Source: a virus
DNA: 39,699 nucleotides
Reading direction: 5' to 3' (one strand)
Virus genome (UHGV): UHGV-0270985
A program made the translations under genes and the position numbers. Positions within the stretch are counted from its first letter, which is position 1; every line of letters begins with the position of its first letter. Of this stretch, positions 1,828 through 39,699 are shown piece after piece. Below the pieces are notes generated by a model, which saw only the letters and a program-made list of their open reading frames with translations, did not search any database and was not told where the DNA came from.

Positions 1828-4800
1828 TCAGCTAATCGTGATGCCTGCAGTGGCTTTCTTCATCACAACAACCAGCAAATCGCTGATACTTGCTGTGGGA
1901 TACCAGCCATTTACCCACCATGCTGATACAGAAAACTCCAGCGTCATGTCGCCGCGACCAGCAGGCATATCAATAACACCACTGTAAACCAGCGTATTAT
2001 CCATCGCGGTACGGTTATAAATTTCAGCACCGTTTTTCTTCACTATCAGGCGGCATGACGAATAAGTATCGCTGTTCTCCCGCTCATGTCTGGCACCGCT
2101 GAAAGCCACCGCCGGAATAACAATCTGCCGGTTAAACGGCTGATCGTCATAAACCCTGACGGTAATGGTTCCTGATGGCCAACGCTTCGGTGCACGGGAG
2201 TCACGAGGGAAAGCCTTACCCACTGTTTTAACGAGATCGCCTTCAATCTGGTTTGCAGACAGTTTCCCTCTGATGACACAGTTCTCGTTAATGGTGACAT
2301 TATTGAGCGTGCCGGTATTCGCCGTGATGGCTCCACTGATATCCGCATTGCGGGCTGTCAGCCTGCCATCCGGCGTCAGGGAAAACGTCGGAGGATTGCC
2401 GGATGACGTGATGCTCACCGCAAACAGTCGCTTCAGGAACACGTCGTTCATGAACAGCTGATTCCCCTGCGCCACAAACAGCGGCGTGGTGTTGCCGTTC
2501 TCCGGGGTAATCATCGCAATGCGATCGGCCTGCAGCAGAATGTTACTCAGGGTCTGACCATCAACATCCTCAATCCCCGCACCAATCCCGGCCACATAGG
2601 GAATACCGTTTTTTGTTTTCTGCACCTTCAGCATATACATGGCATTCAGCTCATTGCGCGTGTCTGACTGAACCCGCTGGATTTGCTGTATGGTCACGGC
2701 CTGGTCACCCAGCTTTTTATCCGTGGTCGAGGTAATTTCACTCCCTTTTTTATCCACGTACTGGCGGACCTGTGCTATCTGTCGGGCGTTTTCTGACTGC
2801 CCCTGGCTGACAGTCTGTGAGATTTCACTGCTCACCCGGTCCACTTTCTGGCTCACCTGCGCGATGGCCAGTGTCTGATCCTCATTCTTTTTCGCAACCA
2901 GCTGCGTGAGGCTGTTTTCCGCCTTCCCGATTTTCCGGGTCACTTCTGCGATATCCGTGTCCATCCGCTGACGGATATCTTCTTCCAGTTGCGTGACCTC
3001 CGTACGCAGCGCTGAAGCATCAATGCGCTCTTTCAGTGCCTGACCCAGAAGCGTCTCATCTATCAGCCCCCGGAAAATTTCCAGATACCCTTCACCATCA
3101 TTGCTGGGCTGCCCGCTGGCTTCCACAAAAGCAGATTTTCCCACCAGGTTGACGCTTCGCACGTAAAACCAGAAATCCGTACCCGGCTTAATCCGGCTCC
3201 CCTGGACAGTCCACTGACTGCCGGTCCCCAGATAACGGGCAGATTTTTCCACCTGTGCTGTGTTCGTGATGCGTTTTTCTGAGAACCAGAATTCAAACTG
3301 TACCGTCGGGTCATACACCGCAAGACGCGGGACCGCCGTTATCTGAAAATACCCCGGCGTCAGCTCAATGGTGGCGGGTTTTGCAGGTGCGTTAATCCGG
3401 AACGATACCGACGCCGGATCGCCCTGCTGTCCCCGGGCATTTACCGCCCGGACCGTCAGCGTGTAACGCCCCAGCGCCAGCTGCCTGAAGCGGTAAGTGG
3501 TTTCCGCCGTCCGGGCCGTGCTGACCAGCCGCTCACTGCCGTCATCCGCTGTTACGGTCAGACGGAGCAGGAAGCTCACGCCCTTCACCACCTTCGGCGT
3601 GTCCCAGCGCGCCAGCACCTGATATTCCCCGCTGTCTGCGGTGACTTCGGCGGTCAGGTGCTGCACCGCTGGCGGCGTGACACCATTCACCGTGCCGCTC
3701 TGGTCGCCGTCAAAGTGCGCTCCGTTATCCACGATGGCCTCTTTTTCCGGTACATGCTGCACGGCGGTGATGGCATACGCACCGTCATCGTTCTCCCGGA
3801 TACTCACACAGCGGAACAGGCGCTGGCGCAGCGTCGGCAGCTTCAGCCCCCACACGCTGTATTCGGCAACGCCGTCAGGAATACGGCTCACTTTCACCTT
3901 CACGCCGTCGGTGACGGACTGGACCTCCACGCTGACCGGATTCCCACTTCCGTCAACCAGGCTTATCAGCGTGGTGCCGGAGGATGACAGCATGATTTCA
4001 CGGTCGAGCGTCAGCGTCCGGGTCTGGCTGTTCACCGCCAGCACGCGCCCGCCGGTGCTGATACCGGCATAGTCATCATCACAGATTTCAATGACATCGC
4101 CCGGAACATGGCGAAGCCCTTCTGCGCCGACGCTGAAGTCCACGGTCTGCGTTTCCAGCAGTTCTGTTTTAATCAGCCACAGCCCGGCGCGGTGTGCCTG
4201 CCCCCGGCTGGTACAGCCAAAGGCATCCATCTTCGTGACGTTACGACCGTAACGGGCAATGGCCTGCGTGTCCTCCACAAGCTCTGTTGCCGTCTCCCAG
4301 CCGTTATCCGGGTCAATCCAGTTCACCTCAACGGCATTATGGCGGTCCTTCAGGGCGCTGAAGCTGTAGCGGAACGGCGCGCCATCATCCGGCATCACCA
4401 CATTACTGCGGTTATAGGTCCACACCTTATCCGACGGTCGGTCCTGCACGAACGTCAGCGTCTGCCCGTTCCATACCGGCATACAGCGCATCGCCGAGCA
4501 AAAATCACTGAGCACATCCCACGCCTTGCGCTGTGTGGTCAGGTACGCATTACAGGTGATGCGCGGCTCCGTGCCGCCAAAGCCGTCCGGCACTGACTGG
4601 TCGCAGTACTGGCCGATGACATACAGCGCCCATTTATCCACATCCGCTGCACCAAGACGTTTCCCCATGCCGTAGCGCGGATGGGTCAGCATATCCCACA
4701 GACACCAGGCCATGTTGTTGCTGTATGCCGGTTTAAACGTTCCGTCCCAGATACCGCTGTATTGCCGCGTCTGCGGGTTATAATTCGACGGCACCTGCAG

Positions 4801-5526
4801 AATACGCCCGCGCAGATGATAATTACGGCTCACCTGCTGGCTGCCGAACTGTTCCGAGTCCACCTGTACGCCGACCAGTGCCGTGTTCGGGTAGCACTGT
4901 TTCACATCGATGATTTCGGTGTATGACGACCAGAGCGTTTTGTTCTGCAGCTGGTCTGTGGTGCTGTCCGGCGTCATCCTGCGCATCCGGATATTAAACG
5001 GGCGCGGCGGCAGGTTATCCACCACCACCGAGGCCAGATACTGCGAGGTGGTTTTGCCTTTAATGGTGATGTCTTTTTCCGTCACCCAGCCACCATTACG
5101 CTGTATCTGAACCAGCAGGCGGACTTCCGACGGATTCCGGTCACCCTTTGAGGTGGTTTCCACCAGTGCCTGCACACCGAAGGTAAAGCGCAGACGGTCG
5201 ATGTTTGCCGACGTGATGGTGCGGGTGATCGGCGTGTCATATTTCACTTCTGTACCGAGCACCGTCTCGGAGCCGGAGGATTCAAAACCTTCCGGCGGTG
5301 TCTGCTCCTGCTCACCTGCCCGGAACACCACCGTGACGCCGGAGATGTTGGTATTCCCCTCACTGTCCAGCACCGGCGTACTGTTCAGCAGCACGCTTTT
5401 TAATCCATCCACCGGACCTTCAATCGGCCCTTCGCTGATGGCATCAATCACACTCAGCAGTTGCGTGGACTTCAGGTTGTCCTTCGCTTCGCGCGGGGTA
5501 TGCCCCTTACTGCTTCCTTTGCCCAT
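1828..5526 (-). CDS. J: tail tip / host specificity protein J
   Basis: 1232 aa; starts [43 protein letters not shown], the conserved lambda gpJ N-terminus; position after I. Confidence 0.95.
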
Positions 5527-19762: not shown

Positions 19763-20113
19763 TCAATTGATGCGTTCGCGCGCTGTTTTTGCTTTATGAC
19801 AGGGCCAGCACAGACTCTGCAGGTTACTGTCTGCATCTGTGCCACCATGAGCTTTCGGAATGATGTGGTCCACAGTTCTGGCTTCAACGGCTCTCCCATT
19901 GCGCAGGCAGTTCTGACACAGATGATTATCACGCTTCAGTATGCGCGCACGTATGGCATCCCATTTCGAGCCATAGCCACGCTGGTGGCGGCTCAGTCCG
20001 CGTTGATGCTGTACCCATCCTTCGCCACGATGTTTATCGCAGTAACCAGAACTGTCTGTGGTTGTACCTGCACATCCACGCTTACGGCAGGCGCGTGGGA
20101 TTAGTGCTGGCAT
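19763..20113 (-). CDS. HNH endonuclease, packaging-associated
   Basis: 116 aa with Cys-rich HNH motifs (CxxC...DHIIPKAHGGTDADSNLQSLCWPCH); immediately upstream of terS as in HK97-type cos phages. Confidence 0.8.
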   Translation of the reverse strand: MPALIPRACRKRGCAGTTTDSSGYCDKHRGEGWVQHQRGLSRHQRGYGSKWDAIRARILKRDNHLCQNCLRNGRAVEARTVDHIIPKAHGGTDADSNLQSLCWPCHKAKTARERIN

Positions 20114-20251: not shown

Positions 20252-20791
20252 ATGGATATTAAAGATAAAATCAATACCATTTTGTTATGTGACATTGCCA
20301 TCCACCTAGGTATCGAAACTGATATTGATCCACAGCTTGTTAAATATGCTGTGTCATCTGGTAATGATTGGGTTATCAAGGCCGAATATTCACATTTGGA
20401 TGTTGACGAACCAAGTAAAGAAGATCGTGATTTTGTTACTGCTGTCTTGAATATGTATCGCGGACTTTCCAATGCTTTCAGGAAACTTAGTGATGACGAG
20501 CAAAAAGAATTAGTCCGTGACCATCATCTAAAAATACATGATGGGGCAATTCAGCTCCCAGGTTTCGACGGTAATAATGAATGCGATTACTTCAGTATCA
20601 TTGAGGCATATCAGAAAATTGATCGCTTCCCCGAACAGAAACAGCCCATTGCCAATACTCATTCACGTACAGAACATCTCTATAACGCAATGCTTGATGA
20701 GTTTAAGAAAATTGACGCTGTAAATCGAAGCTGGGATTTATCGAAGGAAGAACTGGCATCCATTCTTTCCACAGCTCCACGCAGTTTCTAA
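20252..20791 (+). CDS. moron gene; product weakly resembles the YfbU (UPF0304) family
   Basis: 179 aa on the opposite strand to the late operon, own ribosome-binding site (GAGGG), visibly AT-rich against the flanking phage genes. Resemblance to E. coli YfbU (LPGFDG..., ...THSRTEHLY... segments) is recalled, not searched. Confidence 0.55.
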   Translation: MDIKDKINTILLCDIAIHLGIETDIDPQLVKYAVSSGNDWVIKAEYSHLDVDEPSKEDRDFVTAVLNMYRGLSNAFRKLSDDEQKELVRDHHLKIHDGAIQLPGFDGNNECDYFSIIEAYQKIDRFPEQKQPIANTHSRTEHLYNAMLDEFKKIDAVNRSWDLSKEELASILSTAPRSF

Positions 20792-21218: not shown

Positions 21219-21701
21219 TTATCTGAGACATTGCTCACGAATGTATAGCTGTGCCCCTTCCAGTTGCTTCTGCATCGTCATCAACCGTTCTCTGAGGGTG
21301 AAATAATCCCGTTCAGCGGTGTCTGCCAGTCTGGGGCTGGTTGCATTATCCACGCTGGTGGGTCCGGTGGCTTCACGCACGGCTGCGGAGCAACTGGCAT
21401 TGACCCGCAGGCGCTTACGACCAGCGGCAACATCAGCGCGCAGAGTTTCATTTTCAGCTTTCGCATTGGCTAATTCTCTCGAGTACTTTGCATCGAGCGC
21501 AGCAACATCACGCTGACGCTGTTGCATGTCAGCGATGGTGGCAGTCGCCTGCTTCAGCTCACTGACTTTTTTATCACGCTGTTCTTTGTAGGCGATGGCG
21601 TTATCACGGTAATGATTGACCGCCCACGACAGGCAGACGATGGTGCAGATAACCAGAGTATAAATAATCGCTGCGACTCTGCTCACTGATCTATCCCCCA
21701 A
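21219..21701 (-). CDS. Rz: i-spanin Rz
   Basis: 160 aa with N-terminal TM anchor and the conserved [16 protein letters not shown] segment. Confidence 0.9.
21281..21466 (-). CDS. Rz1: o-spanin Rz1, lipoprotein embedded in Rz in the +1 frame
   Basis: 61 aa with lipobox (LVVSAC) and proline-rich mature part ([30 protein letters not shown]). Confidence 0.85.
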
Positions 21702-22216
21702 CAGGCTAATGCGCTTTCCTGGTCACGACGAATAACCTGTCCATAGCAGTTATTTGAACGTATGCGGCAATCGCGCCCACCATCTTTTATCCACCAGCGA
21801 ATCGCCTCGCATGCGCCCTTACGATCACCGGCATTCAGCCGCTTATAAAACGTCGACGGGAAACACTTACCGGGGCCAATGTTATAGGGACAGAATGACG
21901 CTATACCCGCTTTCTGTGGTTCGGTCAGTGGTACTTTAATATTGCGCTCTACCCATGCCAGCGCCTTATCACGTTCAATAGCGTTAACCTGGTCGCATTT
22001 TTCCTTCGACAGCTTCATTCCCGGTATGACGGGCTTACCATCCACCATTGTGGCACCCCGACAGATGGTCCAGATGCCGGCCCCATCGCGGTATGCCGTT
22101 GTGTGGTTACCTTCTTTTTCATCCAGAAACTGGTCGAGAATATCAGGCGCGGGCGCACCGACGGCAATCAGTGCCAGAACGGCAGCCGACAGGCCGTATC
22201 TGATTTTTGCGTTCAT
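21683..22216 (-). CDS. R: SAR endolysin (T4-lysozyme family with N-terminal signal-anchor-release domain)
   Basis: 177 aa; N-terminal weakly hydrophobic Gly/Ala-rich segment ([16 protein letters not shown]) followed by a lysozyme domain; phage-21 type. Confidence 0.85.
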
Positions 22217-22279: not shown

Positions 22280-22630
22280 TTAAGGTTGTGATTCCGGAGG
22301 AGTCTTCAGAGAACCAGTAATTCTTCCTGGTAGCTTTCCTTTGTAGGTTATCCACACATTCTGCGCCTCTAAAATTACGGGGCGCTTTTCCGGCGACTGC
22401 TCATCCCCTTCACATAACCCGGCAGCAACATCCAGGAAGACCTGTCTGATGCTCCTTCTGGCTGCTGCCTCATAAAACCCCAGCGCGGCACCTTCAACAC
22501 GGTCCAGCGAGATGTCCAGGTCAAAAATTTCACCGTCAAAGCGTTTTTTGTCCCGTAACGCTAAAGTTACCGTAACTTTATTCTCAAAATTGCGGATCCC
22601 TTTCACAATCAGTTCATAGTTTTGAGTCAT
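22280..22630 (-). CDS. YdfR-like (DUF1327) protein inserted between holin and endolysin
   Basis: 116 aa; the holin/endolysin-flanked position matches ydfR in the Qin prophage; family assignment is by position and recall. Confidence 0.5.
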   Translation of the reverse strand: MTQNYELIVKGIRNFENKVTVTLALRDKKRFDGEIFDLDISLDRVEGAALGFYEAAARRSIRQVFLDVAAGLCEGDEQSPEKRPVILEAQNVWITYKGKLPGRITGSLKTPPESQP

Positions 22631-22634
22631 TGAA

Positions 22635-22850
22635 TTACTCTCCCCGTGCAGCCTTACGACGGTCCTCTCTGATTTTGAAATACAGGTTAGTCAGATATGT
22701 CAGGAAGCCCAGAACCAGACTCCCCAGTACACCAATCGCAGCCCACTGTGACGGACTGACCTGATCAAGCCACTGTAAAAACCAGTAGCCAGCACTGCCT
22801 GCGGAGGTGCCGTAGGCAATGCCCGTTGAAATTTTATCCATGGATTTCAT
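22635..22850 (-). CDS. S: class II holin / pinholin, S21 type, with dual-start motif
   Basis: Start taken at ATG 22848-22850 ([29 protein letters not shown]...). M-K-S-M gives the two in-frame starts typical of the antiholin/holin pair; two TM segments. Confidence 0.85.
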
Positions 22851-23291
22851 AGCCTCACCTCCGCAGCGAACGGATGGCGTAGTTATAAGGGGAGCGAAAA
22901 AGAAAGAATGCGCGATTGCGCAATATGGTAACGTCAGGGTATTATCCACTGGCTGAATAGATCACTTCACGTTTTTTGTTCCTTGCCGCCCGTATCCATA
23001 TGCGGGCTTTTTTTTGCATGTAAAAAGGCCCCAACACATGTGCGTGGGGCCTGAGAGTATACATGGTTTCAGTCAACTGCATGGTGCCGGGTGCCTCCCG
23101 GTGAATTCAGTACCAGCACCTGAATCCGCGATTATCCCATATACCTACTCGCTGATTGCCCCTCCGCACAGGGGGATTCACCATGCCAGTTTCTTTTAAC
23201 AAACTCCCCGCAAAACAGACAACTGTCAACCGTCTGAATTGTGAGACATTTAAAAAAAAGGCCCGCAAAAGCGAGCCGGGAAAAATAAGTC

Positions 23292-23368
23292 TGGCGCGTT
23301 GTACTGGATTCGAACCAGTGACCGATTGCTTAGAAGGCAATTGCTCTGTCCGGTTGAGCTAACAACGC
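23292..23368 (-). tRNA. argO: tRNA-Arg (anticodon UCU), argO-like
   Basis: Manual fold of the reverse complement: acceptor GCGTTGT/ACAACGC, D-arm GCTC...GAGC, anticodon stem ATTGC/GCAAT with loop CTTCTAA, T-arm ACTGG-TTCGAAT-CCAGT, 3' GCCA. Confidence 0.85.
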
Positions 23369-23381
23369 AGGGTACAGATAA

Positions 23382-23458
23382 TGGACCGCCATCGAGGACT
23401 CGAACCCCGCGCAACCAGCTTCGAAGGCTGGTGCTCTATCCTGATGAGCTAATGGCGG
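23382..23458 (-). tRNA. argN: tRNA-Arg (anticodon UCG), argN-like
   Basis: Manual fold: acceptor CCGCCAT/ATGGCGG, anticodon stem CCAGC/GCTGG with loop CTTCGAA, T-loop TTCGAGT, 3' TCCA. Confidence 0.75.
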
Positions 23459-23465
23459 TATGTGA

Positions 23466-23541
23466 TGGTGGCCCTTGCTGGATTTGAACCAGCGACCTGG
23501 CGATTATGAGTCGCTCGCTCTCACCTCTGAGCTAAAGGGCC
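23466..23541 (-). tRNA. ileZ: tRNA with CAU anticodon, most likely lysidine-dependent tRNA-Ile2 (ileZ/ileX-like); tRNA-Met cannot be excluded from the anticodon alone
   Basis: Manual fold: acceptor GGCCCTT/AAGGGCC, anticodon loop CTCATAA, T-loop TTCAAAT; matches the E. coli ileX layout from memory. Confidence 0.75.
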
Positions 23542-23661
23542 GGGCGCAGGATAATAACGTTACGAAATCAATGTTGCAAGCATTCAAAAATCACCTGGTT
23601 AAAAATCACCCTTAGCTCCTCCACCAGCGCATTCACCATGTCTATCCGAGATAAGTGGCAC

Positions 23662-23688
23662 AAAAAAACCCGCTTGTGGGCGGGTTTT
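23662..23688. terminator. bidirectional intrinsic terminator downstream of Q, candidate tR'
   Basis: Stem cccgc-ttgtgg-gcggg flanked by A7 on one side and TTTTGTTTG on the other; 65-90 nt downstream of the Q stop on the minus strand. Confidence 0.5.
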
Positions 23689-23751
23689 GTTTGCTTTTGC
23701 CATCACGTACAAAATCGGCAAAATATCAGATTTGCATGAAATATATGCCTT

Positions 23752-24441
23752 TCAATCTACTTTTGCAACACTTTGCTTTGAAAATGCCGCCTTTTGTTTT
23801 GAACGTGTTCTCATTACAAACAATAAAGCCTCACTATCCAGTCGTTGAAAAATGTGTTTCATTGCAACCCAGTGACGAGTAAATGTTTTGGACCAGTTTT
23901 TAGTTGTCACTCCCGCCAGTAATGCCAGCTCCTGGTATTCATAACCTTCCCCACCAAAAAGTTCTGCTTTTACTGCCTGCGCCGCCAGCCAGATTAATTT
24001 TTTCAGGCGTTCCTGCGTTTTCCCTGCAATTTTTCTGGTACCGGATTGAGTATTAAATTCATTCCACGCCCACTGTGTTATCGCGATCTGATATTCCCAA
24101 CAAATACTCCCGCCGTAACACCACAACAACCAGGCTTTATGATGCTCTTCAAGAGACAGCAAAGCCCGCCGCCATGATGATGTCGAAAACTCAACCGGGC
24201 TGACCAGGGCAATTGATGAGCCATTCGCCAGTGATTGTTTTCCCGGGATTGGTGGATTATCCCGCGTTATCATTTTTCCAGTCACTTCATCGCGGTACCG
24301 GATTTTTTTTCGCCTGTAACGCCCTGTATCGAACATGGCATTCTCCTGCCAGGCTTCAAGCTGACCTTTTGTTGCCCCACTCAAATCAGCGGTGGCGATA
24401 ATGAGCTGCTCACGCACAAACTGTAAATACTGGTTATTCAT
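23752..24441 (-). CDS. Q: late-gene antiterminator Q (QuuQ-like)
   Basis: 229 aa starting MNNQYLQF; ATG overlaps the rusA stop (ATGA); canonical Q position between the nin/rusA region and the tRNA/lysis block. Confidence 0.6.
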   Translation of the reverse strand: MNNQYLQFVREQLIIATADLSGATKGQLEAWQENAMFDTGRYRRKKIRYRDEVTGKMITRDNPPIPGKQSLANGSSIALVSPVEFSTSSWRRALLSLEEHHKAWLLWCYGGSICWEYQIAITQWAWNEFNTQSGTRKIAGKTQERLKKLIWLAAQAVKAELFGGEGYEYQELALLAGVTTKNWSKTFTRHWVAMKHIFQRLDSEALLFVMRTRSKQKAAFSKQSVAKVD

Positions 24442-26300: not shown

Positions 26301-26456
26301 TTACTCCTCAGGTTCGTAGACTGTGAAGACAGCGACCTCCGTCTGGCCGGTTCGGATTCGTACCTCGCAGAGGTCTTTCCTCGTTACCAGTGCCGTCACT
26401 ATGACGGTTAAACAGATGACGATCAGGGCGATTAACATCGCCTTTTGCTGCTTCAT
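26301..26456 (-). CDS. hok: Hok/Gef-family type I toxin (HokD/RelF-like)
   Basis: 51 aa from ATG 26454-26456: MKQQKAMLIALIVICLTVIVTALVTRKDLCEVRIRTGQTEVAVFTVYEPEE; single TM helix and the conserved CE(I/V)R motif. Confidence 0.85.
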   Translation of the reverse strand: MKQQKAMLIALIVICLTVIVTALVTRKDLCEVRIRTGQTEVAVFTVYEPEE

Positions 26457-26747
26457 AGCCTGCTTCTCCTTGCCTTTCGGCACGTAAGAGGCTAACCTAC
26501 GTGTGTAGAGCATAGATATGGCCTCAGATTAATGTTAAGCGTCTTGCCGGACGCGTAATGTTAACTGGGGCTTTTCTCTATCTGCCTTTTGGTGTTCATG
26601 CCTGAGACAGATAGCCTCAAGCACCCGCTGCAATTCTACTTAACTCTCCTTTTCCCGCAAACCGTTTTTATCCCCAGCGGCAAATCGAATACACCACCAG
26701 CGCCACCGCCATCGCAATTCCTACCGTTGTTAATGCTTCAGGCCAGG

Positions 26748-33154: not shown

Positions 33155-33207
33155 TTTCTGGTGACGTTTGGCGGTATCAGTTTTACTCCGTGACTGCTCT
33201 GCCGCCC
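33155..33207 (+). ncRNA. dicF: DicF small RNA (53 nt, Hfq-dependent cell-division inhibitor)
   Basis: tttctggtgacgtttggcggtatcagttttactccgtgactgctctgccgccc followed by TTTTT; matches the DicF sequence as I recall it, including the GGCGG...CCGCC terminator stem. Confidence 0.8.
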
Positions 33208-33381
33208 TTTTTAAAGTGAATTTTGTGATGCGGTGAATGCGGCTGAGCGCACGCGGAACAGTTAAAACCAAAAACAGTGTTATGGGTGGATTCTCTGTAT
33301 CCGGCGTTAATTGTTAACTGGTTAACGTCACCTGGAGGCACCAGGCACTGCATCACAAAATTCATTGTTGAGGACGCGATA

Positions 33382-33570
33382 ATGAAAACGTTATTACCAA
33401 ACGTTAATACGTCTGAAGGTTGTTTTGAAATTGGTGTCACTATCAGTAACCCAGTATTTACTGAAGATGCCATTAACAAGAGAAAACAAGAACGGGAGCT
33501 ATTAAATAAAATATGCATTGTTTCAATGCTGGCTCGTTTACGTCTGATGCCAAAAGGATGTGCACAATGA
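33382..33570 (+). CDS. dicB: cell-division inhibitor DicB
   Basis: 62 aa from the internal ATG: MKTLLPNVNTSEGCFEIGVTISNPVFTEDAINKRKQERELLNKICIVSMLARLRLMPKGCAQ; downstream of DicF as in Qin. Confidence 0.8.
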   Translation: MKTLLPNVNTSEGCFEIGVTISNPVFTEDAINKRKQERELLNKICIVSMLARLRLMPKGCAQ

Positions 33571-33758
33571 ATTCAGCATTTGTGCTTGTTCTGACAGTTT
33601 TTCTTGTTTCCGGAGAGCCAGTTGATATTGCAGTCAGTGTTCACAGGACAATGCAGGAGTGTATGACTGCAGCAACCGAACAGAAAATTCCCGGTAACTG
33701 TTACCCGGTCGATAAAGTTATTCACCAGGATAATATCGAAATCCCGGCAGGTCTTTAA
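33567..33758 (+). CDS. ydfD: YdfD-like small membrane/lysis protein
   Basis: 63 aa from ATG overlapping the dicB stop (ATGA); N-terminal hydrophobic segment MNSAFVLVLTVFLVSG. Confidence 0.65.
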   Translation: MNSAFVLVLTVFLVSGEPVDIAVSVHRTMQECMTAATEQKIPGNCYPVDKVIHQDNIEIPAGL

Positions 33759-36380: not shown

Positions 36381-36584
36381 ATGAGTAGCTTATTTTTAAC
36401 CGAAGATGAATTGCTAATATTAACGGGCTGCAAATATGCAAGCCACCAGCGAAAATGGTTAACGGAAAACGGGCTTCCGTTCTATACCAATCGTAGTGGC
36501 AAACCGATTGTCAGCCGGGATCTATTTACCTGCAATAAAACTTTACCACCACGCGAGGTAGAGCCGAATTTTGGTGCAATCTGA
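36381..36584 (+). CDS. xis: excisionase-like protein
   Basis: 67-aa ORF immediately upstream of int; its stop overlaps the int start codon. Confidence 0.6.
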   Translation: MSSLFLTEDELLILTGCKYASHQRKWLTENGLPFYTNRSGKPIVSRDLFTCNKTLPPREVEPNFGAI

Positions 36585-37609
36585 TGGGAAGACGAAGGAA
36601 AAATCCTGAACACGAAAAACTACCTCCAAATGTATATCCAAATAAATATAGTTATGTATGGAAACCAACATCCAGAGAATCTGTCACACTAACCGCCATC
36701 AAGGATGGTTTAGCTGCTTTATGGAAAAGGTATGAGGAAACTGTAAATAATCGCGATCGCGCAATGACATTCGGTCGCTTGTGGGAAAAATTCCTCGCCA
36801 GCGCCTATTACAGTGACCTCAGTCCAAGAACACAAAAAGATTATCTGCAACATCAAAAAAAGTTGCTTGCCGTATTCGGTAAGGTGCCGGCAGATTCCAT
36901 AAAACCAGAACACATCCGTCGATACATGGACCAGAGAGGGGGGCAGAGTAAAACGCAAGCCAACCATGAAAAAAGCAGTATGTCCCGCGTTTACAGTTGG
37001 GGATATGAGCGAGGGTACGTGAAGGCTAACCCATGTGCAGGTGTAAGTAAATTCAAGGCCAAAAACCGCGAACGATATGTAACCGACAAAGAATACCAGG
37101 CAGTATTAAGCGTTGCACCTCTTCCTGTTTTTATCGCAATGGAAATTGCCTATCTGTGTGCAGCGAGGGTTTCCGATGTGTTATCGCTGAAATGGGAGCA
37201 GATTGGAAACGACGGGATCTTTATCCAGCAAGGGAAAACAGGGAAAAAACAGATAAAAGCATGGAGTCCACGATTACAGGCGGCGATCGAAAAAGCAAAA
37301 CAGTTACCAACATCCGCCTATGTAATCAGCAATCAATACGGCAACCGATATATGTACAAAGGCTTTAACGAAATGTGGGTAGAAGCAAGAAATCGCGCAG
37401 GCAAAATTTCAGGTATTTTAACCGACTTCACCTTTCATGATCTGAAGGCGAAAGGAATTTCAGACTATGAAGGAAGCAGCCGGGATAAGCAACTTTTCTC
37501 TGGTCACAAAACCGAGGGGCAAGTGCTAATCTATGACAGGAAGGTTAAAGTTTCACCGACACTTGATGTCCCGTTACCTGAAAATATTCCAAGAAAATAT
37601 TCCAAGTAA
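36584..37609 (+). CDS. int: tyrosine integrase (lambda Int family)
   Basis: 341 aa; N-terminal arm-binding-like region, C-terminal catalytic region with HDLKAKG and GHKTEGQVLIYDR (His-x-x-Arg and Tyr nucleophile context). Confidence 0.9.
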   Translation: MGRRRKNPEHEKLPPNVYPNKYSYVWKPTSRESVTLTAIKDGLAALWKRYEETVNNRDRAMTFGRLWEKFLASAYYSDLSPRTQKDYLQHQKKLLAVFGKVPADSIKPEHIRRYMDQRGGQSKTQANHEKSSMSRVYSWGYERGYVKANPCAGVSKFKAKNRERYVTDKEYQAVLSVAPLPVFIAMEIAYLCAARVSDVLSLKWEQIGNDGIFIQQGKTGKKQIKAWSPRLQAAIEKAKQLPTSAYVISNQYGNRYMYKGFNEMWVEARNRAGKISGILTDFTFHDLKAKGISDYEGSSRDKQLFSGHKTEGQVLIYDRKVKVSPTLDVPLPENIPRKYSK

Positions 37610-37661: not shown

Positions 37662-37723
37662 TGGCGGAGAGAGGGGGATTTGAACCCCCGGTGGAGTTGC
37701 CCCCACTCCGGTTTTCGAGACCG
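37662..37723 (-). other. 3' portion (anticodon stem-loop to CCA end) of a tRNA-Ser(CGA) gene, the attachment-site core
   Basis: Reverse complement reads CGGTCTCGAAAACCGGAGTGGGGGCAACTCCACCGGGGGTTCAAATCCCCCTCTCTCCGCCA: anticodon loop CTCGAAA, long variable arm, T-arm, acceptor 3' strand plus CCA. No complementary GGAGAGA 5' acceptor strand follows at higher coordinates, so the tRNA is not intact here. Confidence 0.6.
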
Positions 37724-38648: not shown

Positions 38649-39699
38649 TCCACAACCTCCCCAAGCTGCGCATCTGTTAGCTCTTTATGCCAGAGACGAA
38701 AATTCCTCACATGCCCAAATAAATGGCGTAATCCTGCTGTAGTTTGTCCACCAATGCGAATGGTTGCTGTACTCCGGATATATTCCCATTTGGTTTTAGT
38801 TTCGCTGCTTAACTTACCGTTACTGACTACACATGTGGACCGTTCGGACTTTACCCGCATACCAATAAGCATTTTTTCCAGCCCGGCATTTTCATTTATT
38901 CGTCGGTTTGAACCACCTATATCACAATACGGAAAACCGTCGTACCCACCTGATGAACCAAACCCCATTACGATCCCCGCATCTGCCTGATGCCGGTATG
39001 TGTCAAAAACACGCGGTGCTGCATTTGGCGTTTTATACCAGTTCTTATGTACCTCACAAAGAACCGTAAAAGGAAGATTATAAAGATTATTCTTAATCGG
39101 AACTGTAACCATATCGCTTGCCCGCGTTACCGGTGCCGTCCCCGTAACAATAAAAGATGATGCGCCTGTACCAGCCTCAATCTGTGGAGTGGTTACATCG
39201 AGATAATCCCCTGATGCAACCATCTGCCCTGTATCCGGAGAATACTGGACAAAACCACCAACCGTATTTTCTGTTGTATCTGCTTTTAATGTAGCCTCAA
39301 AAAATATCCAGCCAGTTGCATCATCCTTAACAGACCTTGCTGTAACACGGCTTGTCTGACCTGTCTTGCTAATTATGCGGGTGGTAAGGTTCAGGTTTGC
39401 TGCTCCTATTGATGTCCTTACCTCCCCATCATAATGTTCAAATAAAATACGAACGGCGATATTATCAACTTCACTTTTTACCCGACAGGATATAGTTACA
39501 TGCTTTTCGTCCCCTGAAGTATCAACCCCTCCGGTACTCGAATACAGTCCGATAATGGTATGCGCTTTACTTGTACCAACAATCGAATCCTGTACGACAA
39601 ACCGGCCATAATTAAACCCGAAACTATCTGTGCCTGTTTCTGTAACGTCCAGTGAAGTTGACTTATTCCACTTCGAAGGGTCTGTACTGTTCTGGAAGA
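38645..39699 (-). CDS. hypothetical protein of at least 350 aa, 5' end beyond the window; beta-rich, possibly a tail fibre / receptor-binding protein
   Basis: The minus-strand frame stays open from the stop at 38645 to the window end, well beyond the track's Met at about 39223; hand translation of 39224-39699 gave no stop. Gly/Ser/Thr-rich; family not recognised. Confidence 0.4.
   Translation of the reverse strand, partial: FQNSTDPSKWNKSTSLDVTETGTDSFGFNYGRFVVQDSIVGTSKAHTIIGLYSSTGGVDTSGDEKHVTISCRVKSEVDNIAVRILFEHYDGEVRTSIGAANLNLTTRIISKTGQTSRVTARSVKDDATGWIFFEATLKADTTENTVGGFVQYSPDTGQMVASGDYLDVTTPQIEAGTGASSFIVTGTAPVTRASDMVTVPIKNNLYNLPFTVLCEVHKNWYKTPNAAPRVFDTYRHQADAGIVMGFGSSGGYDGFPYCDIGGSNRRINENAGLEKMLIGMRVKSERSTCVVSNGKLSSETKTKWEYIRSTATIRIGGQTTAGLRHLFGHVRNFRLWHKELTDAQLGEVVE

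Follow-up and report, generated by a model that had tools for sequence, protein, structure and literature searches.

A tRNA-Ile2, tRNA-Arg, tRNA-Arg cassette of the Stx-phage type and an uninterrupted cargo junction in a lambdoid phage genome without stx

The virus genome UHGV-0270985, a stretch of 39,699 nt referred to in its entirety as the window, carries three tRNA genes between the gene for the late-gene antiterminator Q and the holin gene. The locus raises the question of whether the trio is the rare-codon tRNA cassette known from Shiga toxin (Stx)-converting and related lambdoid phages, as the first-pass annotation had proposed, and whether the DNA between the tRNAs and the holin is an empty slot for toxin cargo. 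The results presented here make it highly probable that the trio is the standard ileZ-argN-argO cassette of lambdoid (Stx-type) phages, residing in a temperate phage of B2-type E. coli that lacks the toxin and has the tRNA-Ser gene beside mtfA as its integration site.

A search of the whole window with ARAGORN identified exactly three tRNA genes, all on the minus strand within 23292-23541, with the anticodons that had been claimed (CAT, TCG and TCT). The Rfam tRNA model supported the same trio at the same coordinates. The anticodon order in the direction of transcription is CAU (Ile2 type), Arg-UCG and Arg-UCU.

23466-23541, minus strand: tRNA-Ile2 of the ileZ type, anticodon CAU (ARAGORN; Rfam tRNA model, 70.6 bits)
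23382-23458, minus strand: tRNA-Arg of the argN type, anticodon UCG (ARAGORN; Rfam tRNA model, 56.2 bits)
23292-23368, minus strand: tRNA-Arg of the argO type, anticodon UCU (ARAGORN; Rfam tRNA model, 70.1 bits)

The gathering score of the Rfam model is 29 bits, and the trio is therefore far above chance. Inspection of the sequence revealed a CCA end encoded in each of the three genes. The gene with the CAT anticodon was labelled 'Met' by ARAGORN. Nonetheless, genomes with an identical trio sequence are annotated by the Prokaryotic Genome Annotation Pipeline (PGAP) with tRNA-Ile, tRNA-Arg and tRNA-Arg. When the 76-nt CAT gene was used as the query, a full-length match was obtained in 5,426 of 5,426 complete E. 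coli genomes, the best match in genomes devoid of a prophage copy being 88-91% identical and annotated tRNA-Ile, while no tRNA-Met annotation was present among the matches listed. Since the annotation and the identity to tRNA-Ile genes agree, the CAU tRNA is by its sequence of the Ile2, lysidine type despite the 'Met' label. Ile2 reads AUA after lysidine modification, and the window tRNA may carry the same modification.

Alignment of window 23606-23251 with the ileZ-argN-argO region of the Stx2a phage WGPS6 (AP012539) showed 92.4% identity over 356 bp, a region that includes the promoter and the terminator, in agreement with the proposed kinship to Stx-converting phages. The three anticodons and their order are those of Stx2-converting phages of the 933W/Sp5 type, and in WGPS6 as in the window the cassette follows Q and tR' and precedes the lysis genes. 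The individual genes are identical to those of the Stx2a phage at 75 of 76 (ileZ), 70 of 77 (argN) and 75 of 77 (argO) positions. The argN acceptor stem, read from the sequences, is wholly Watson-Crick paired in the window whereas that of the Stx2a phage copy contains two G-U pairs. The phages also differ in Q, which is a PF06323 protein of 229 aa in the window as opposed to the product of a 163-codon gene annotated 'late antiterminator' in WGPS6. The signals surrounding the cassette are as follows.

23752-24441, minus strand: gene for the late-gene antiterminator Q (Pfam PF06323, Phage_antiter_Q, 304 bits)
23740-23768, minus strand: candidate late promoter pR', TTGCAA-17-TATATT, overlapping the end of Q (consensus scan)
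23658-23688, minus strand: candidate tR' terminator, AAAACCCGCCCACAAGCGGGTTTTTTT, ending a leader RNA of ~73 nt (hairpin in the RNA fold, z = -2.8)
23551-23579, minus strand: tRNA cassette promoter, TTGCAA-17-TATTAT, ending 10 nt before ileZ (promoter scan)
23250-23277, minus strand: intrinsic terminator of the tRNA cassette, GGCTCGCTTTTGCGGGCC followed by T8 (terminator scan)

The Q gene is named 'bacteriophage antitermination protein Q' by PGAP in genomes with the identical sequence and ends 210 bp before ileZ, placing the trio downstream of Q as had been stated. The candidate pR' is identical in sequence in prophage PP6 of enteropathogenic E. coli (EPEC), and a function as late promoter is suggested by analogy. 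The tR' stem appeared on the plus strand in the terminator scan, and the T-run of the minus strand was read directly from the sequence. The leader between pR' and tR' scored 22-25 bits with the models for the Salmonella prophage small RNAs (sRNAs) isrK and isrJ; these scores are below the gathering scores of 37-50 and membership was not accepted. The stretch (23658-23768, minus strand) has a nearly identical counterpart in PP6 and could correspond to a short late transcript of the StxS type.

An alignment was constructed of five loci that differ in their Q genes and in their cargo. The TATTAT -10 hexamer 10 nt upstream of ileZ, the three tRNAs, and GGCTCGCTTTTGCGGGCC with its T-run were essentially invariant, and the sequences part ways directly after the T-run of the terminator; the -35 hexamer of the promoter is also the same in WGPS6. 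Since the -10 hexamer, tRNAs and terminator are kept in all five loci with divergence immediately thereafter, the cassette is, as judged from the sequences, a portable and self-contained unit of ~330 bp with its own sigma-70 promoter, three tRNAs and a terminator. In strain Sakai (Sp5), a transcription start site driving the tRNAs has been mapped between tR' and stx2AB (PMC7547250).

In WGPS6, stx2AB is located between argO and the lysis genes, as the first-pass annotation had described for Stx phages in general. The alignment of the cassette ends at window position 23251 and similarity to WGPS6 picks up again at 23248 with the DNA that is 3' of stxB. Thus, the stx2AB operon is a 1,333-bp insert in WGPS6 (L001 3857-5189) right after the argO terminator, and the counterpart of the insertion point in the window is an uninterrupted junction at ~23249/23250, the 3' edge of the cassette terminator. 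Searches of the entire window by tblastn with StxA, StxB and the Stx-phage esterase found neither stx nor esterase genes (best E = 1.5), in accord with the earlier statement that no toxin lies between the tRNAs and the holin. With stxAB absent and the junction uninterrupted, the phage is not Stx-converting. Also absent relative to WGPS6 is the esterase gene before the holin. The alignment that had been called for showed that the stx insert is missing and that the gap DNA from 23248 onward corresponds to DNA 3' of stxB in WGPS6. An sRNA gene of the STnc100 family is part of the gap. Since this gene of the 441-bp gap sits after stxB in Stx phages, sequence comparison confines the true stx slot to one junction, at the 3' edge of the argO terminator, instead of the full 441 bp.

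A query of 1.9 kb running from Q to the holin matched 364 phage records. Variants of the slot are documented in 95NR1, MS10860, EPEC PP6 and the Stx2a phage, with TerB and DUF3927 genes among the other cargo found at the junction.

The role of the trio in decoding was evaluated by comparing 55 phage genes (10,625 codons) with 31 host core genes of strain M1/5 (9,334 codons). Frequencies are per 1000 codons.

AUA: phage 7.25, host 3.96; odds ratio 1.8, p = 0.0025
CGA: phage 5.36, host 3.11; odds ratio 1.7, p = 0.017
CGG: phage 11.9, host 3.6; odds ratio 3.3, p = 2.5e-11
AGA: phage 5.65, host 1.07; odds ratio 5.3, p = 1e-8
AGG: phage 5.08, host 0.21; odds ratio 24, p = 7.5e-13

In this host gene sample AUA, CGA and AGA occur at 4.0, 3.1 and 1.1 per 1000, consistent with the claim that these codons are rare in E. 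coli. The five codons together account for 3.5% of phage codons and 1.2% of host codons, an approximately three-fold difference. The largest excess was found for AGG, AGA and CGG, of which AGG and CGG were not among the codons listed in the first-pass annotation. Wobble could extend the UCU tRNA to AGG and the UCG tRNA to CGG, depending on modification of U34. The analysis of late genes that had been suggested was only partly favourable; all five codons are enriched across the phage genes, but AUA and CGA are not significantly so in the late genes.

Several points weigh against a role of the cassette in supplementing decoding. The host baseline comprises 31 genes from one 50-kb region only. 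For the late genes alone the odds ratios are 1.46 for AUA (p = 0.1) and 1.62 for CGA (p = 0.056). The most highly expressed structural genes mostly avoid the five codons, the major capsid gene containing 5 in 404, and any translational benefit may thus be small or may fall chiefly on early, regulatory and lysis genes. Decoding of CGG with the UCG tRNA, and of AGG with the UCU tRNA, would depend on how U34 is modified. Expression of the tRNAs in this phage is itself a prediction, the promoter and terminator being conserved and a start site mapped in Sakai. Codon supplementation is nevertheless supported. Since AUA and CGA are not significantly enriched in late genes, the capsid gene has few such codons, and the lysis genes and many early genes are richer in them (30-85 per 1000), any benefit is probably small and not confined to late genes.

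The modest enrichment of AUA and CGA is also in keeping with the tRNAs being mainly anti-defence spares, which would replace host tRNA-Arg or tRNA-Ile cut by anticodon nucleases or abortive-infection systems instead of serving codon usage. Colicin D-like toxins target tRNA-Arg, which makes up two of the three tRNAs, and the UCG anticodon is to our knowledge not in the chromosomal tRNA set of E. coli K-12. The phage tRNAs also diverge from the host isoacceptors, the best match to the Ile2 gene in genomes lacking a prophage copy being the 88-91% already given. However, the codons matched by the three anticodons are precisely the rarest of E. coli, each of the five readable codons is used to excess in the phage, and no gene for a tRNA nuclease or for counter-defence adjoins the cassette. 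We therefore regard this explanation as improbable, if marginally less so than the two considered below.

The sharp edges of the cassette admit another interpretation, namely that the tRNA genes are passive relics of integration or recombination at host tRNA genes, kept only as the flank of a recombination hot spot for accessory genes and with no role in translation. Divergence exactly at both edges and the many different cargoes right after the terminator are in keeping with it, and a 2026 preprint takes prophage tRNA hits as marks of integration. On the other hand, the three genes are full length with encoded CCA ends and high model scores, and the pairing of the argN acceptor stem is not only kept but improved in the window. 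The cassette is internal to the late operon and ~14 kb distant from the attachment site (~37723), its -10 hexamer and terminator are invariant across divergent phages, and a tRNA transcription start site is mapped in Sakai. The array itself is also maintained. A scan of IMG/VR with the last 25 nt of argO returned at least 120 loci, and the counts of IMG/VR loci given here and below all refer to the matches listed. Of these, 118 extended 400 bp or more upstream of the argO match, and in 97 of the 118 the CAT-TCG-TCT array was intact. Together these results leave the relic interpretation very unlikely. Among the same matches, the UCG tRNA is missing in ten loci (CAT-TCT only), and a GCG anticodon and a duplication of the TCT gene are each confined to single loci. 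At the same site, arrays of Lys, Ile, Thr and Gly tRNAs are found in other prophages of E. coli.

The distance from argO to the start codon of the holin is 441 bp (22851-23291), close to the ~440 bp of terminator-rich, non-coding DNA that had been described as an empty cargo slot. The length, the lack of toxin genes and the uninterrupted junction are as described, but the gap is not empty; two sRNA genes lie inside it, one of them a candidate. No open reading frame (ORF) longer than 77 aa is present in 22851-23291. The terminator-rich appearance is explained by three terminators, belonging to the tRNA cassette, the STnc100 gene and the plus-strand RNA.

23016-23215, minus strand: sRNA gene of the STnc100 family (Rfam RF02076, 140.2 bits; gathering score 47)
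~23022-23051, minus strand: terminator of the STnc100 gene, within the gene

The STnc100 match occupies 200 bp of the 441-bp gap and covers positions 1-206 of the 206 positions of the covariance model. The homologue in the Stx2a phage (L001 5223-5434, 154 bits) begins 75 nt after stxB, and STnc100 is also found 3' of the tRNAs in PhiR49_2, 95NR1 and MS10860. The helices are common to five STnc100 homologues, with compensatory changes at four base pairs. The locus corresponds to that of the Hfq-binding sRNA EcOnc27/sRNA103 downstream of stx2B in O157 (PMC12711010), a relative of PasD (PMC12711010, PMC12370729, bioRxiv 10.64898/2026.05.13.724894). The window copy resembles EcOnc27/sRNA103 in the full-length match to the model, the helices, and the place relative to argO and the cargo junction. 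By analogy with the homologue, for which it is reported, the window STnc100 gene may give rise to a discrete Hfq-bound transcript. It differs from the Stx2a-phage gene in that it directly follows the tRNA terminator rather than stxB, has a shorter internal variable region, and has a longer terminator loop.

A promoter for STnc100 was sought in the sequence and not found; a conserved TTGACA (23224-23229) is without a properly spaced -10 hexamer and lies just 9 nt upstream of where the Rfam model begins. Instead of STnc100, PGAP annotates an 'incomplete hypothetical protein' pseudogene antisense to it (23038-23196, plus strand). This pseudogene and the gap ORFs of 46-77 aa are probably spurious because they overlap the structured RNA. 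The MS10860 prophage (L007) contains two tandem copies of STnc100 (4100-4305 and 4583-4792) after a TerB/DUF3927 insert, with an AsxR gene (4795-4847, minus strand) in antisense orientation immediately after the second copy.

Adjoining the STnc100 terminator is a candidate sRNA gene on the opposite strand, the two genes being convergent. PGAP has no annotation for it.

22916-23015, plus strand: candidate sRNA gene, antisense to the late operon (promoter, seed, terminator, homology)
22916-22945, plus strand: promoter of the candidate, TTGCGC-18-TATTAT (scan)
22952-23015, plus strand: predicted RNA of ~64 nt
22981-22987, plus strand: seed CCUUGCC, the complement of GGCAAGG
22988-23007, plus strand: terminator of the candidate with T8 (terminator scan)

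The predicted fold has a z score of -4.3, and none of 200 shuffled sequences was as stable. PMC8550237 describes E2348C_1409.E2348C_1408.IGR of EPEC as an Hfq-dependent sRNA by RIL-seq, equated by the authors with the enterohaemorrhagic E. coli (EHEC) sRNAs EcOnc08/21/42, and gives targets that include cfa, dppA, emrA and tir with the common motif GGCAAGG. This motif is the exact complement of CCUUGCC at window 22981-22987. Comparison with the EPEC locus in PP6 showed identity in 81 of 107 aligned columns, with both promoter hexamers (TTGCGC and TATTAT) and the segment TTCCTTGCCGCC conserved. The TTGCGC -35, TATTAT -10, CCUUGCC seed and GCCCG...CGGGC terminator with U-run are shared with loci of the EPEC sRNA and AsxR type, the seed excepted in AsxR, and the antisense orientation right after the STnc100 terminator is shared with EcOnc08/21/42, the EPEC sRNA, and AsxR/AgvB where these occur at this position. 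Homology, promoter, seed, terminator, position and orientation thus all point to a candidate sRNA of the EcOnc08/21/42 type.

The element was not assigned to AsxR or AgvB, as neither covariance model (RF02703 and RF02702, respectively) gave a hit at E <= 1 in 22500-23900; the same search with L007 (MS10860) as the positive control gave 63 and 43 bits. In MS10860, AsxR occupies the same position and orientation as the window element but is without its CCUUGCC seed segment. Identity with PasA or PasC was also rejected, the PasA sequence in the EPEC supplement being unrelated. The 5' half of the window element differs from that of the EPEC sRNA, and the candidate is possibly a variant with a diverged 5' half and a different set of targets. 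A more tentative idea is that the block of tRNAs, STnc100 and antisense sRNA is itself accessory cargo, in which two Hfq-type sRNAs would rewire host genes in commensal or extraintestinal B2 E. coli. This idea draws on the analogy with cfa, dppA and emrA, targets of the EPEC homologue, and we consider it possible but doubtful.

The frequency of the arrangement was evaluated in both complete genomes and phage contigs. Among 5,426 complete E. coli genomes, 4,238 have matches to parts of the segment from the tRNAs to the holin, and 97 have the compact layout of the window (at least 80% coverage). The state of the junction was scored in the 77 IMG/VR loci with at least 1.7 kb after argO. The argO-STnc100 junction was uninterrupted in 35, where it measures 104-107 nt, the window value being 106 nt; 10 contained stx, 16 contained other cargo, and 16 had no exact match to the STnc100 core. 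With 35 of the 77 empty and 10 holding stx, public phage contigs most often show the toxin-free junction, and stx is one accessory insert among several. Most loci contain an esterase gene between STnc100 and the holin, and in only 2 of the 77 is the holin 442 nt after argO as in the window. That the gap is a decayed cargo site, its toxin or esterase lost and non-functional terminator debris left behind, as implied by the first-pass annotation, is hardly credible: related phages do have stx2AB and/or an esterase gene of ~1.9 kb between the tRNAs and the holin and the compact layout is uncommon in both collections, but the argO-STnc100 junction is seamless as in the 35 loci, the STnc100 gene matches its entire model at 140 bits and its helices are conserved, promoter hexamers, seed and terminator have all been retained in the plus-strand element, and no fragment of stx or esterase is left in the window by tblastn.

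The results are best explained by a standard cassette that forms part of the late operon, with Q/pR'-tR' on one side and the lysis genes on the other. In the lysogen, transcripts from pR' would stop at tR' while the tRNA cassette and the two sRNA genes could be expressed from their own signals. On induction, Q-modified RNA polymerase starting at pR' would read through tR', the cassette and all the downstream terminators into the lysis and structural genes, and processing of the late transcript would release the tRNAs as well. The three tRNAs would thereby add decoding capacity for the rarest E. coli codons, with AUA read by the first, CGA and probably CGG by the second, and AGA and AGG by the third, and may confer a benefit in fitness. 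The point after the cassette terminator is a hot spot at which other phages hold accessory genes (stx2AB, TerB/DUF3927 and others). In this phage it is uninterrupted and is followed downstream by two convergent sRNA genes (STnc100 and the EcOnc08/21/42-like candidate) and then the holin of the phage 21 type.

The genes downstream of the gap form a lysis cassette.

22635-22850, minus strand: class II holin of the phage 21 S type (Pfam PF04971, phage P21 holin S, 122 bits)
22280-22630, minus strand: YdfR/DUF1327 (Pfam PF07041)
21683-22216, minus strand: lysozyme with a hydrophobic N-terminus (Pfam PF00959)
21219-21686, minus strand: Rz (Pfam PF03245)
21281-21466, minus strand: Rz1-like ORF embedded in Rz (ORF list)

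The holin has a dual start, Met1 and Met4 in MKSMDK. The PF04971 dual-start holin, PF00959 lysozyme and PF03245 Rz resemble the lysis cassette of phage 21 (S21 pinholin, signal-anchored endolysin and Rz/Rz1), from which the window departs, as do the Qin and PP6 prophages, by a YdfR/DUF1327 gene that separates holin and lysozyme. Prophage PP6 of EPEC E2348/69 (NC_011601, 1441845-1447593) also has a Q of the same annotation and length (690 bp), 95% identity in alignment from the last 35 bp of Q through ileZ, an ileZ-type tRNA, the plus-strand sRNA locus, a class II holin and the YdfR gene. PP6 departs from the window in that its annotated tRNAs number only two and are followed by an ISEc13 insertion, and in that a 1.85-kb DUF6645 gene separates the sRNA locus from the holin.

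A near-identical prophage, integrated at the tRNA-Ser gene beside mtfA, is present in the human E. coli isolates FDAARGOS_1304, CFSAN067215 (O18:H1), M1/5 and UPEC129. An exact reverse complement of the M1/5 prophage was ruled out, the early region being mosaic. The FDAARGOS_1304 prophage is identical to the window save for one IS21 insertion, located at the end of the HNH gene before the terminase genes and absent from the window. When the FDAARGOS_1304 gene calls were mapped onto the window, 54 of 55 transferred intact. The window appears to be a circular permutation of a complete phage genome of ~39.7 kb; the last 865 bp (38835-39699) continue the tail-fibre gene that runs off the left end at position 1, and the prophage match ends at 37723 (37723/37724), the tRNA-Ser attachment site. 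The integrase ORF (36584-37609, plus strand) is intact in the window and annotated as frameshifted in the RefSeq prophages checked (M1/5 and FDAARGOS_1304).

Other features include a hokD toxin gene with sok antisense RNA between the replication genes and Q (26301-26626, minus strand; RF01794, 117 bits), and a Qin-like cell-division-inhibitor module (33156-33758, plus strand) in which dicB and ydfD come after the DicF sRNA (RF00039, 76.7 bits). An HNH endonuclease gene (19763-20113, minus strand) adjoins the gene for the small terminase subunit. Between the lysis cassette and the terminase genes, a YfbU-family gene (20252-20791, plus strand) is oriented opposite to its neighbours and has the appearance of an accessory insert.

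All of these features are within the known biology of lambdoid phages. The cassette, its position and the link with rare codons are already described for Stx phages, as in GenBank annotations, and the sRNA genes of the gap are of kinds already described in EHEC and EPEC prophages; the finding is thus correct and already known. Most complete E. coli genomes contain the same cassette, and the result carries little weight beyond correct annotation. The practical consequences are that an ARAGORN 'Met' call on the CAT anticodon at this locus denotes a tRNA of the Ile2 type, and that a search for sRNA genes should precede any description of the intergenic DNA between the tRNAs and the holin of such phages as empty. 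The exact point of stx insertion, together with the frequent uninterrupted junction, provides a clean reference for tracing the gain or loss of toxin and accessory genes.

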